This document shows positions 62,178 through 64,000 of a stretch of 64,000 nt of DNA, in pieces. The stretch is taken from positions 387,697-451,696 of the forward strand of contig CP060230.1 of the NCBI GenBank assembly GCA_023898605.1, given 5' to 3'. Source of the DNA: Candidatus Nomurabacteria bacterium. Its GTDB lineage: Bacteria; Patescibacteriota; Minisyncoccia; Phycocordibacterales; UBA9973. The position numbers and the translations under genes are program-made. Position 1 is the stretch's first letter. Each line of letters begins with the position of its first letter. The notes beneath the pieces are model-generated. The model was given only the letters and a program-made list of their open reading frames with translations, was not told the origin of the DNA and ran no database searches.

Positions 62178-62618
62178 ATGATAAAAGAAAACAAAAAAGC
62201 ACCGGGTTTCAGTTCTGTAGACCAGGGCGGCAACAAAATAAAACTTAGCGATTTCCTTGGGAAATGGGTACTTTTGTACTTTTATCCAAAAGACAACACT
62301 CCAGGATGCACCAAAGAAGCTTGCGCTCTCCGTGACACTCACAAAGAATTCACAAAACTAAACGCCGTGGTTCTCGGAGTATCCAAAGATAGCGAGAAAT
62401 CTCATACGAGTTTTATAGAAAAGTTCGGACTACCGTTTACTCTCATATCTGACAAAGATCAAAAAATTATCAAAAAATACGGAGCCGACGGTATCATGAT
62501 GCCAAAAAGAGTTTCTTTTCTGATAAACCCAGAAGGTATCGTGAGAAAAATTTATAGCAAAGTAAAACCAGAAACTCACGCAAGTGAAGTAATTAGAGAT
62601 CTAAAAGAGCTTGGGTGA
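62178..62618 (+). CDS. bcp: thiol peroxidase / peroxiredoxin Bcp (AhpC-TSA family)
   Basis: FYPKDNTPGCTKEACALRD with the peroxidatic Cys. Confidence 0.8.
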   Translation: MIKENKKAPGFSSVDQGGNKIKLSDFLGKWVLLYFYPKDNTPGCTKEACALRDTHKEFTKLNAVVLGVSKDSEKSHTSFIEKFGLPFTLISDKDQKIIKKYGADGIMMPKRVSFLINPEGIVRKIYSKVKPETHASEVIRDLKELG

Positions 62619-62621
62619 TAT
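62597..62621. repeat. 25-bp direct repeat copy 1 (3' end of bcp)
   Basis: agatctaaaagagcttgggtgatat, identical to 63551-63575. Confidence 0.85.
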
Positions 62622-62690
62622 TGGTATATAAAAAATCCTTAGATTCAAAGTTCCAAAGGAACCAAGTATCTAAGGATTTAACTTTCCAAG

Positions 62691-63371
62691 CTACTTTTCA
62701 GAAGTAGCGGGAAAGTACAGGAACAAAATGCCCCCACCCCACGGATTCAGATAGTCGAAGCCGCTGGTACGGAAGTTCCACTCATCGCCATCCCAGTAGA
62801 GGCGCGCCGCGAGCAACATACCGTTCATTTTTACATGAAATATGTAGTACTCTCTTTTCAAAAGCTCCATACCAAAGCACTCTTTGGCGGTTTCTTTTTC
62901 AAAGATGAGCAAGTACGCGACACAAAAGAATGTGTCGAAGTTCATGTATTCAGGATTTTTACATGCTTTTTGGATTTCTCCACCTCGCATTCTTATTGGC
63001 AATCGATATTGCTCGAGCGCACCGAGATCGGTGCGGATAGCAATTTTCCGCTCCAGATTGTTCTGGATGAACTTCTCATGGAAACTCTCCCAGAAAAAAA
63101 GTCTGGTATCGCCCTCAGTTACTCGGGATTTGAACACCTCGCCGAGGACAAAGGTGTTGGCGAATACTTTTTTAGGCTCGAGTCGATTGTTTATTAACTC
63201 AATTATAAGCCTCAACCTTTCATTGTCATCCATATCTATCACATCCTGTGTGGATCCATGGTCAAGTAATGAAAGTTGTTTTTCTTCTTTTCCGGTAAGA
63301 AGCATAAGTGATGTGGTGAGCTTTGTCACCAGTTGCCCAACCATGGACAGTCTTACGGGTTTTTGTCTCAT
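62691..63371 (-). CDS. hypothetical protein in a GC-richer (about 45% versus about 33%) inserted segment
   Basis: 226-aa ORF with no recognisable motif and composition atypical for the window; a 12-bp palindrome tcactctagtga lies upstream. Confidence 0.4.
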   Translation of the reverse strand: MRQKPVRLSMVGQLVTKLTTSLMLLTGKEEKQLSLLDHGSTQDVIDMDDNERLRLIIELINNRLEPKKVFANTFVLGEVFKSRVTEGDTRLFFWESFHEKFIQNNLERKIAIRTDLGALEQYRLPIRMRGGEIQKACKNPEYMNFDTFFCVAYLLIFEKETAKECFGMELLKREYYIFHVKMNGMLLAARLYWDGDEWNFRTSGFDYLNPWGGGILFLYFPATSEK

Positions 63372-63546
63372 TGTGCTTGCTACGATACCCTACTTGCAAA
63401 ATGCAACTACTCTACGTAGACTTTGATTTTTGAAGCGAACAATAAAATTACCTTGTAGTATATTTACCATGCCTTATTATATATGTCAATATCCTGTAAT
63501 CACTCTAGTGATTTTGTGAGAAATAAATATGACAATATAAGTATAA

Positions 63547-64000
63547 TCAAAGATCTAAAAGAGCTTGGGTGATATCGTTATATTCAAAAGAATATCCTAG
63601 AGAAGTCAGCTTTTCGGAGCTGATTTTTTGTGAAGAAAAAAGCGAAAGCCCAAACTCTCCCAAAACTATTTTTGCTATAGGCCTAGGAATCATCCATACA
63701 GGCCAGAATTTGTTTACTTTTGCAAAAACTTTAAAAAGATCTTTTTGAGTTACAGGTTCCCCTGCACCGGTATTATAAGCACCGCTTGCAGAATCATTTT
63801 CTAGAAGAAAAATATATATGTTCACTATATCTTGCCAGTGTACCCACGGCATATACTGCTTCCCGTTTCCAAAATATCCACCCAAGTGTTTTTTGAAAAC
63901 TGGAGTAAGTGCACCCAGTATCCCGCCCTTCCCTAGAACATGTGCAGTCCTGACTAAACAAACTCTAGTTCCAAAATCACGAGCTTCGGATGCTTCTTCT
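63547..64000 (-). CDS. TIGR01777/YfcH-like epimerase-family protein (SDR with a DUF1731 C-terminus); N-terminus beyond the window
   Basis: the C-terminal segment PWVHWQDIVNIY...GAYNTGAGEPVTQKDLF...PIAKIVLGEF...KLTSLGYSFEY matches the DUF1731 tail; the frame stays open to the window edge. Confidence 0.55.
   Translation of the reverse strand, partial: EEASEARDFGTRVCLVRTAHVLGKGGILGALTPVFKKHLGGYFGNGKQYMPWVHWQDIVNIYIFLLENDSASGAYNTGAGEPVTQKDLFKVFAKVNKFWPVWMIPRPIAKIVLGEFGLSLFSSQKISSEKLTSLGYSFEYNDITQALLDL
63551..63575. repeat. 25-bp direct repeat copy 2 (3' end of the yfcH-like gene)
   Basis: identical to 62597-62621; encodes ...ALLDL on the minus strand. Confidence 0.85.

Follow-up and report, generated by a model that had tools for sequence, protein, structure and literature searches.

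Near the right-hand end of the window, by which we mean the whole 64-kb stretch of DNA analysed here, two convergent genes, bcp and a yfcH-like gene, are separated by an insert that carries a gene for a 226-aa protein and is flanked by a 25-bp direct repeat. The locus raises the question of what this gene is, where it came from, and how it came to lie between two genes that both keep their 3' ends. Taking the evidence as a whole, the best explanation, and one that we consider probable, is that of an orphan target cassette of a diversity-generating retroelement (DGR) sitting in a duplicated overlap of the bcp and yfcH-like genes. The locus is a modest case of gene gain and no new kind of system.

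Direct repeat and gene tails

The sequence AGATCTAAAAGAGCTTGGGTGATAT is an exact 25-bp direct repeat at 62597-62621 and 63551-63575, with no further copy in the 64-kb window when up to three mismatches were allowed. An ungapped alignment of 46 nt around the two copies (62590-62635 versus 63544-63589) is still 87% identical, and 15 of the 21 positions flanking the exact repeat match, a level that ~1e-4 of randomly drawn pairs of 21-mers in the window reach. In the left copy lies the native 3' end of bcp (62178-62618, plus strand; Pfam AhpC-TSA, E = 1.3e-40), which codes for a 146-aa peroxiredoxin Q/BCP, ends in ..IRDLKELG*, and overlaps the repeat by its last seven codons and stop. The right copy, read on the minus strand, is the native end (..ITQALLDL*, stop at 63547-63549) of the yfcH-like gene, an epimerase-family member (Epimerase and DUF1731, the latter at E = 7e-11) whose 3' part occupies 63547-64000 on the minus strand and which runs past the window end; its full 296-aa version was seen in a close relative (L011).

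Each copy also holds an open fossil of the opposite tail, IKDLKELG* for bcp in the right copy and FLYTNITQALLDL* for yfcH in the left. Because the DUF1731 profile reaches the final residue of the yfcH-like protein (positions 1-47/47, Pfam) and the final residues of bcp are covered in alignments with distant bcp homologues, these 25 nt belong natively to bcp and to the yfcH-like gene alike. The repeat is thereby supported as a probable duplicate of an ancestral tail-to-tail overlap (26 bp) of bcp and the yfcH-like gene, an overlap that we infer solely from the two fossils. The preliminary description had proposed such a duplication around the insert, and it gains further support from L011, where 20 codons of a yfcH tail persist beside bcp as a separate fossil. 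With the overlap duplicated on either side, bcp and the yfcH-like gene both keep their native 3' ends, and an empty site, with bcp joined directly to the yfcH-like gene, would read ..TAATTAGAGATCTAAAAGAGCTTGGGTGATATCGTTATATTC...

Short two-copy repeats are common and the region is AT-rich, so a coincidental repeat or an assembly artefact, with no real insertion behind it, had to be considered, but we regard this as vanishingly improbable. None of 100 dinucleotide shuffles matched the 25-bp repeat, the flanks are similar at P ~1e-4, each copy keeps the two reading frames open, and the structure recurs in independent assemblies. Coincidence had been named from the outset as the alternative to the repeat, and these observations rule chance out. 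Two independent Logan contigs (L004 and L005) carry the insert with both repeats at 99.9-100% identity, and the insert is therefore not an assembly artefact.

Base composition

The GC content of the window is 35.7%, that of the 929 bp between the repeats 40.5%, and that of the ORF (62691-63371) 44.2%. The insert had been described as about 45% GC against about 33% for the window; it is indeed richer, but by the figures given here. About 8% of equally long segments match or exceed the value for the inter-repeat segment, and the ORF lies in the top 0.8% of segments of its length. Its GC3 of 0.52 is the highest in the window, whose 40 ORFs with 200 aa or more have 0.28 +/- 0.06. The gene family to which it belongs keeps 44-46% GC at every locus, with host GC ranging from 35.6 to 47.8%, and its members lie in five different genomic contexts. 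The constant GC, the GC3, and the five contexts bear out the earlier suggestion of a horizontally acquired gene, and an unusual GC content is accepted as an indication that a DGR has been transferred (PMC5758913). We infer that the gene probably arrived by horizontal transfer or by recombination, the donor being a relative with about 45% GC.

The gene cassette and its protein family

The 226-aa gene lies at 62691-63371 on the minus strand, and its product is on record as USN94618.1, 'hypothetical protein'; an exact look-up of the product brought up nothing further. It had no matches in Pfam, PHROGs, PADLOC, or NCBIfam. Homologues numbered only five among 5.8e9 proteins, and the family had 131 cluster representatives among 1.84e9 proteins. 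The homologues with DGR context are 38-63% identical. A Pfam domain was found in 0 of 61 family members scanned, and the family was absent from viral contigs in a scan of these. The gene had been called unknown and without a recognisable domain, which holds for the domain libraries but not for its relatives: as judged from homology, it is a member of a small Pfam-less CPR family of DGR variable proteins.

From its sequence, the insert is a self-contained gene cassette with promoter, structured 5' UTR, ORF, and terminator. The promoter, read from sequence at 63461-63489 on the minus strand, consists of TTGACA, a 17-nt spacing, and an extended -10 (TGG-TAAATA); it was not listed by a consensus scan, and its layout recurs upstream of homologues. 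Upstream of the start codon (63380-63425, minus strand) lies a conserved two-helix RNA motif common to the homologues in L001, L006, L007, and L008, in which 92.7% of cells are paired and five of nine pairs have compensatory changes, and neither the insert nor four homologous loci had a match in Rfam. Past the stop codon, a hairpin with 22-nt arms followed by a U-run (62633-62679, minus strand; -24 kcal/mol, z = -3.9) is likely the intrinsic terminator of the gene. Analogous hairpins come after the stop codons of homologues, and the terminator may occupy the position of the post-VR hairpin in DGR targets. An integron cassette was rejected: the hairpin has no attC core sites (RYYYAAC / GTTRRRY) as read from sequence, and a promoter within the insert sets it apart from the typical cassette of an integron. 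The 12-bp palindrome tcactctagtga reported upstream of the gene is present at 63500-63511, with 5-nt arms and a 2-nt spacer, within an extension to 7-nt arms (AATCACT-CT-AGTGATT, 63498-63513) just upstream of the -35 box, but it is imperfect and not conserved in L011.

Predicted structure

An AlphaFold2 model of the 226-aa protein reached a pLDDT of 90.7, an earlier run from five sequences (pLDDT 47) having been unusable. The protein comprises an N-terminal helical part and a predicted C-type-lectin-like domain, and the model weakly resembles the C-type-lectin/FGE fold, including that of the DGR protein TvpA. Profiles A1 and A6, run against the sequences in the PDB, gave chance-level matches only. 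In the CLec-fold proteins TvpA (2Y3C), Mtd, and AvpA (PMC5006420), variable residues lie in C-terminal β-strands and loops; compared with these, the 226-aa protein has no detectable sequence similarity and an extra N-terminal helical segment of ~60 aa.

Relationship to diversity-generating retroelements

Three homologues lie in compact DGRs of related Nomurabacteria that consist of target/VR, TR, an Avd gene in the opposite orientation, and RT. In L003, VR and TR of 109 nt differ at 16 positions, all of them TR adenines, and a bAvd gene is present. In L008 (VR 6077-6191, TR 6496-6610), 14 of 16 mismatches fall at TR adenines, with Avd at 6637-6999 (minus strand) and RT at 7077-8024, and L006 has Avd together with an RVT_1 RT (E = 2e-16). 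In these relatives, the RT would copy TR RNA with errors at adenines, and the error-bearing copy would overwrite the 3' end of the target gene, which would result in a diversified ligand-binding surface on the C-type-lectin-like domain.

Across the family, the C-terminal 40 aa are hypervariable and the remainder is conserved. Alignment to the VRs of L008 and L003 places a VR-equivalent of the window gene at 62708-62813 on the minus strand (aa 187-222). At the positions corresponding to TR-AAY, all ten codons of the gene are NNY (CGC, TAC, GAT, AAC, CGT, AGC, TAT, AAT, GGT, and ATT), compared with 48.6% of the codons elsewhere in it (P ~7e-4), and the 226-aa gene carries in them the codon signature of adenine mutagenesis.

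The closest comparison is with the targets of CPR/Patescibacteria DGRs ('clade 2', Roux et al. 2021, PMC8144416), given the homologues in Nomurabacteria DGRs with adenine-specific VR/TR mismatches. CPR DGR targets without any known domain have been reported there, and a second close counterpart of the 226-aa protein is the group of CPR targets whose variable regions are ungrouped or 'UVR' in Wu et al. (2018, PMC5758913). Like CPR DGR targets, the protein is short and has neither a signal peptide nor a known domain, and its gene has a C-terminal VR, AAY-derived NNY codons, and host-atypical GC; unlike them, it has no TR, Avd, or RT within 64 kb and a VR-equivalent that is invariant among strains.

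A probable target gene without its retroelement

The window covers 64 kb of the 619-kb (619,167-bp) genome and ends 430 bp past the right-hand repeat copy. When the 64 kb were scanned for a TR with the final 170 nt of the ORF, mismatches at adenines being tolerated, only the ORF itself was returned; the TRs of L003 and L008 had no significant blastn match in the window, and the RT and Avd of L008 gave nothing better than E = 0.035 by tblastn. A wider search aimed at a DGR RT on the same 619-kb contig gave >8000 matches, of which the best 120 were listed, and did not bear on that contig. A 20-nt match of the VR-equivalent to the 5' UTR (62724-62743 and 63397-63416, 75% identity) was rejected as a TR remnant, being too short and having two of five mismatches off adenines. 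L004, L005, L010, L011, and L013 share the window's VR-equivalent without a single difference. Because TR, Avd, and RT are absent from the 64 kb and the VR-equivalent is identical in all covering assemblies, the gene looks like a solo, no longer diversified target with a frozen VR. It would now make one fixed variant of a binding protein. The gene may have arrived by itself, or within a complete DGR whose TR, Avd, and RT subsequently disappeared.

Alternatively, the gene could still be rewritten in trans by a DGR at another place in the 619-kb genome. Such remote targets are known and are overlooked by contig-based surveys (PMC8144416), and DGRs are very frequent in CPR genomes. The ORF, promoter, post-VR hairpin, and VR-type 3' signature GCTACT are intact, one MAG (L010) has a contig that stops precisely where the VR-equivalent has its 5' edge (62815), and the limited reach of the window leaves room for a DGR acting from outside it. 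On the other side, six assemblies, made from different samples, agree in the VR-equivalent at 100% identity, it is crossed unbroken by two unitig-based Logan contigs, and TR, RT, and Avd are absent from 62 kb on the side where the 226-aa family keeps them. We consider an active remote target unlikely.

The family has a second solo member (L001), located between pilB and pilC, genes of which neither is present in the window; a scan found no TR for it, and the genes called up to 10 kb away include neither RVT_1 nor bAvd. Homologues of AvpA outside DGRs are also known (Handa et al. 2016, PMC5006420), and these are likewise variable-protein homologues without adjacent RT or TR; they differ in belonging to another protein family and an archaeal host, and an analysis of flanking repeats or insertion sites was not reported for them.

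The same site in other strains

The same gene at the same site with similar GC in relatives had been named as a finding that would speak against the proposed insertion, and this is in part what we found, since two close relatives (L011 and L013) share the gene, site, and GC. In L011, the same cassette is present and the exact 25-bp repeat is absent. Near-identical strains share the cassette, with their differences confined to its two junctions, and the exact 25-bp repeat belongs to the strain of the window alone. Such junction-only differences do not fit a single simple insertion. No empty site turned up: a metagenome scan with bcp gave only matches of <=56% identity, none with a yfcH-like neighbour, and the search in genome contigs did not return the window's own genome. 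In L014, a relative in which bcp is 81% identical, a DGR RT adjoins bcp at the corresponding position, the C-terminal motif of such RTs lying 50-96 nt past the bcp stop on the minus strand.

The junctions bear on whether the insert is a small mobile element that moves as a unit, its repeat being the target-site duplication of a transposase or the attL/attR core of an integrase. As in att cores or long target-site duplications, a foreign segment lies between exact 25-bp copies whose similarity continues imperfectly beyond them, and the host genes regain their 3' ends through the repeat. The cassette lies at different loci in different genomes, the junction-only differences look as if it had been re-inserted, and the 3' end of bcp is a hot spot for rearrangements. 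We nevertheless hold this reading to be very unlikely. The insert's only ORF with homologues is the DGR-target homologue, which has no transposase domain, and no integrase or recombinase was found in the insert, whose immediate neighbours are bcp and the yfcH-like gene. Terminal inverted repeats are absent from the insert ends, no repeat flanks the solo copy in L001, and the near-identical L011 has the cassette without the exact repeat. Unlike att or target-site sequences, the repeat is exactly the gene-tail overlap whose duplication keeps both flanking genes intact. Selection alone explains the extent of the repeat, because exactly that stretch must be duplicated to spare both genes, and only insertions that duplicated the overlap would have survived at this site. 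An inverted repeat at 62617-62633 / 63477-63493 was rejected as the ends of an element, such pairs being common in AT-rich DNA and one arm lying 57 nt inside the insert.

A further suggestion, which we think quite unlikely, is that solo DGR-target cassettes are mobile units that are repeatedly looped out and re-inserted at the bcp/yfcH overlap. Re-insertion could proceed by a Campbell-type single crossover on the ~25-bp overlap or by an RT-dependent route, and ~25 bp is about the minimal length for homologous recombination. Mobility of this kind would explain both the junction-only strain differences and the strain-specific exact repeat.

Implications

With the orphan target cassette as the preferred reading, USN94618.1 and a family of ~130 cluster representatives, covered by no domain library, gain an annotation as Patescibacteria DGR variable proteins. 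A DGR target gene that outlives its retroelement bears on the fixation of diversified binding proteins after loss of the mutator, and surveys that demand an adjacent RT would undercount DGR targets. The locus also offers a clean example of an insertion between overlapping convergent genes that is tolerated only with the overlap duplicated. Two small leads are the strain differences restricted to the junctions and the conserved structure of the 5' UTR.

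Identity of the target gene

The gene between the two copies of the direct repeat (62691-63371, minus strand) had been described as unknown and without a recognisable domain. The latter holds for Pfam, PHROGs, PADLOC and NCBIfam, in which the 226-aa protein had no matches, but the gene itself can now be placed: it is a homologue of the variable proteins of diversity-generating retroelements (DGRs), an assignment for which the contexts of its homologues at loci L003, L008 and L006 were decisive. Only five homologues were present among 5.8 billion clustered proteins, including its own record (a hypothetical protein on a 619,167-bp contig of a Candidatus Nomurabacteria MAG), and an exhaustive profile search of 1.84 billion returned 131 cluster representatives of the target family. 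None of the 61 members scanned contained a Pfam domain, in agreement with the usual lack of recognisable domains in DGR targets of CPR bacteria (PMC8144416). The family proteins are well conserved apart from the C-terminal 40 residues.

At L003, a second copy of the final 109 nt of the target gene lies 437 nt downstream; the two differ at 16 positions, all of them adenines in the downstream copy, and a bAvd gene adjoins this repeat pair. L008, from another Nomurabacteria MAG, is a complete compact DGR consisting of the target gene (5498-6202, plus) with its variable repeat (VR; 6077-6191, plus), a template repeat (TR; 6496-6610, plus; 16 mismatches to the VR, 14 of which fall on TR adenines), the accessory gene Avd on the opposite strand (6637-6999, minus), and a 315-aa reverse transcriptase (RT; 7077-8024, plus) to which thousands of sequences from CPR bacteria are closely related. 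L006 carries Avd and an RVT_1 RT after the target gene. The variable codons in the TRs of L003 and L008 are AAC or AAT, and adenine mutagenesis of AAY gives NNY. All ten aligned codons of the window gene (CGC, TAC, GAT, AAC, CGT, AGC, TAT, AAT, GGT and ATT) are NNY, compared to 48.6% of its remaining codons (P ~7e-4 for ten of ten).

In the DGRs of L008 (6496-8024), L003 (6983-7421) and L006 (793-1884), Avd lies between TR and RT on the opposite strand (target/VR plus, TR plus, Avd minus, RT plus), so that a transcript spanning TR to RT would run antisense to avd. The arrangement is not that of the classical avd-TR-RT cassette.

AlphaFold2 gave a confident model with 61 family members (pLDDT 90.7), against a pLDDT of 47 with five sequences. 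Structural comparison of the model gave values of 4.3 for PorK, 3.9 for both pFGE and PvdO, 3.7 for CalU17, 3.6 for both the CD72 CTLD and SenA, and 3.5 for the Treponema DGR variable protein TvpA (110 residues aligned), with further matches to mannose-receptor CTLDs, dectin-2, Ly49, EgtB and CLEC5A. The top Foldseek match, non-significant at E = 0.16, was again a CTLD.

Missing retroelement

A search of the whole 64-kb window for TR-like matches to the 3'-terminal 170 nt of the ORF, with adenine mismatches tolerated, returned only the ORF itself; blastn with two TR queries found no TR in the window, and tblastn with the L008 RT and Avd found neither. Complete DGRs of the target family have the TR 230-300 nt past the stop codon, and in the window this place is taken, after a terminator hairpin (47 nt, -24 kcal/mol, z = -3.9), by the left repeat copy and bcp. 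The retroelement of the 226-aa gene has either been lost or lies far away. Its VR-equivalent (62708-62813, minus) is identical in the window, in the independent Logan contigs L004 and L005, and in L010, L011 and L013, which cover the same site and derive from different samples; two unitig-based contigs run unbroken through it. By contrast, contigs of the DGR-linked homologues L006 and L007 break or collapse at the VR/TR pair. A DGR elsewhere in the genome, beyond the 64 kb searched, might act on this invariant region in trans, which we consider improbable; the likeliest reading is that of an orphan target gene, no longer diversified.

The L006 contig jumps at 680-790 from the VR to the TR end (..CCCGAAACTGTA..), giving its product, P0003, a frameshifted C-terminus, and the L007 contig stops at 2872-2937, where TR-leader-like sequence starts. 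The sequence of L010, a MAG contig, stops precisely at the 5' boundary of the VR-equivalent (window 62815).

A second solo member, P0002 (61% identical; L001, the same as L096, 9880-10800), lies between pilB (T2SSE) and pilC (T2SSF), with its own promoter immediately 3' of the pilB stop and a GC content of 44.8% in a 35.6% GC host. A scan of its locus found no TR, RVT_1 and bAvd were absent from the called genes within 10 kb, and no direct repeat flanks it.

Base composition

GC contents of about 45% for the insert and 33% for the window had been reported; we measured 40.5% for the 929 bp between the repeats, 44.2% for the ORF (62691-63371, minus; within the top 0.8% of equally long windows) and 35.7% for the window. 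The GC3 of the ORF was 0.52 versus 0.28 +/- 0.06 for the 40 window ORFs of at least 200 aa. The target gene has 44-46% GC in all seven loci examined although host GC spans 35.6-47.8%, the complete DGRs of the family reside in genomes of 46-48% GC, and the family occurs in five unrelated genomic contexts. DGRs are known to move laterally and to be recognisable by atypical GC (PMC5758913). The constant GC across hosts and the varied contexts, together with the atypical GC and GC3 in the window, support the horizontal acquisition originally suggested for this gene.

Direct repeat and insertion

The 25-mer AGATCTAAAAGAGCTTGGGTGATAT occurs exactly at 62597-62621 and 63551-63575, with no further copy in the window at up to three mismatches and no match in 100 dinucleotide-preserving shuffles. 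An ungapped 46-nt alignment around this core (62590-62635 versus 63544-63589) is 87% identical, and its flanks match at 15 of 21 positions, a level that randomly drawn pairs of window 21-mers reach at a frequency of only ~1e-4. The insert and both repeats recur in two independent Logan contigs at 99.9-100% identity. The left copy contains the last codons and stop of bcp (62178-62618, plus; AhpC-TSA, E = 1.3e-40) and the right copy the last codons of the yfcH-like epimerase-family gene (minus; Epimerase and DUF1731), and each also holds an uninterrupted fossil of the other tail: IKDLKELG* from bcp on the right and FLYTNITQALLDL* from the yfcH-like gene on the left. The DUF1731 profile match reaches the final residue of the yfcH-like protein and distant homologues align as far as the last residues of bcp; therefore, the same 25 nt are native to both genes, which is difficult to account for without a former tail-to-tail overlap of the two. 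The preliminary description's view of the repeat as a duplication of this overlap is thus well supported, on evidence internal to the locus.

Insertion between genes with a 26-bp overlap would destroy one of them unless the overlap were duplicated, so selection alone accounts for where the repeat lies and for its minimum length. Neither a transposase nor an integrase is present, and terminal inverted repeats are lacking. Immediately left of the exact core, two positions differ; the changes are synonymous in the yfcH-like gene (TAA to TGA stop, CTC to CTT Leu) and put Lys in the fossil bcp tail, as in the L011 allele; the real bcp tail of the window has Arg, as in L014. These differences, too few to be decisive, hint that the two copies stem from different alleles, which would fit gene conversion or a looped-out cassette having integrated through one crossover within the overlap.

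Relatives at the bcp site

The same gene at the same site in relatives had been named as counting against acquisition, and this was found in part: L011 and L013 carry it, and no empty site lacking the insert was found among the relatives searched. L010, a second MAG, is 100% identical to the window as far as 62815. L011 is 98.5% identical over 6.9 kb, with bcp, target and yfcH arranged alike, and its differences are confined to two patches at the cassette junctions (62585-62720 and 63495-63600) of 100-135 nt and ~25% divergence, one with a 42-nt indel; the 775 bp between them are identical and the outer flanks nearly so. The exact 25-bp repeat is absent from L011, in which a divergent yfcH tail persists beside bcp as a 20-codon fossil, SKHLKDSGYRFKYEDLKKAL*. 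These junction-restricted differences may stem from the cassette having re-inserted repeatedly or from short tracts imported from divergent alleles. L004 has one L011 variant, at 63585. L013 (1561-2309) is a mosaic, with a different upstream gene, a bcp 5' half of ~88% identity, a breakpoint inside bcp, and identity to L011 from ~62375 on; the cassette therefore spreads among lineages via homologous recombination in flanking genes.

In L014 (5380-5539), bcp is 81% identical and a DGR RT ORF reads into its tail: LGLLSHGNTHKLRREV, encoded on the minus strand 50-96 nt past the bcp stop, is the motif found at the extreme C-terminus of all 11 CPR DGR RTs tested (e.g., P0231 residues 304-319, 75% identity). 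L006, with target, Avd and RT, comes from the same source sample. On both grounds, this relative very probably has a whole DGR at the bcp site, oriented like the solo gene of the window. The window locus may then be a remnant after loss of TR, Avd and RT; alternatively, insertions recur at a hot spot formed by the bcp 3' end. In L095 (324-1063; bcp 90% identical), homology ends ~17 nt before the repeat, with the last nine bcp codons replaced and followed by a PAP2-like gene. Across L013, L095 and L014, the bcp 3' end is a hot spot of recombination or rearrangement in this Nomurabacteria group. Directly upstream of bcp are two adjacent paralogous small genes (61244-61762 and 61765-62175; 172 and 136 aa), both with an N-terminal hydrophobic segment and with nearly identical 3' ends (89% identity over ~70 nt) that encode ..MVIDTENFTCSVEE* in each.

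Expression unit and 5'-UTR motif

Alignment with homologues resolved the insert into promoter (TTGACA-17-TGnTAxxxA/T; 63461-63489, minus), conserved 5' UTR, ORF and terminator, that is, a predicted complete expression unit. A conserved 5'-UTR motif precedes the start codons in the window (63380-63425, minus), L001 (5950-6000), L006 (55-100), L007 (1930-1975) and L008 (5470-5520). It had no match in Rfam and may act as a regulatory RNA for DGR target genes in CPR bacteria. A 5-bp outer helix surrounds conserved single-stranded stretches (GUAAnGUAG / GAGnAUAG) and a hairpin that has a different sequence at every locus with pairing always kept; 92.7% of cells are paired, with compensatory changes in five of nine pairs, a level also attained in 2 of 500 shuffles. 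The 3' half of the motif overlaps a GAGG Shine-Dalgarno-like sequence at several loci.
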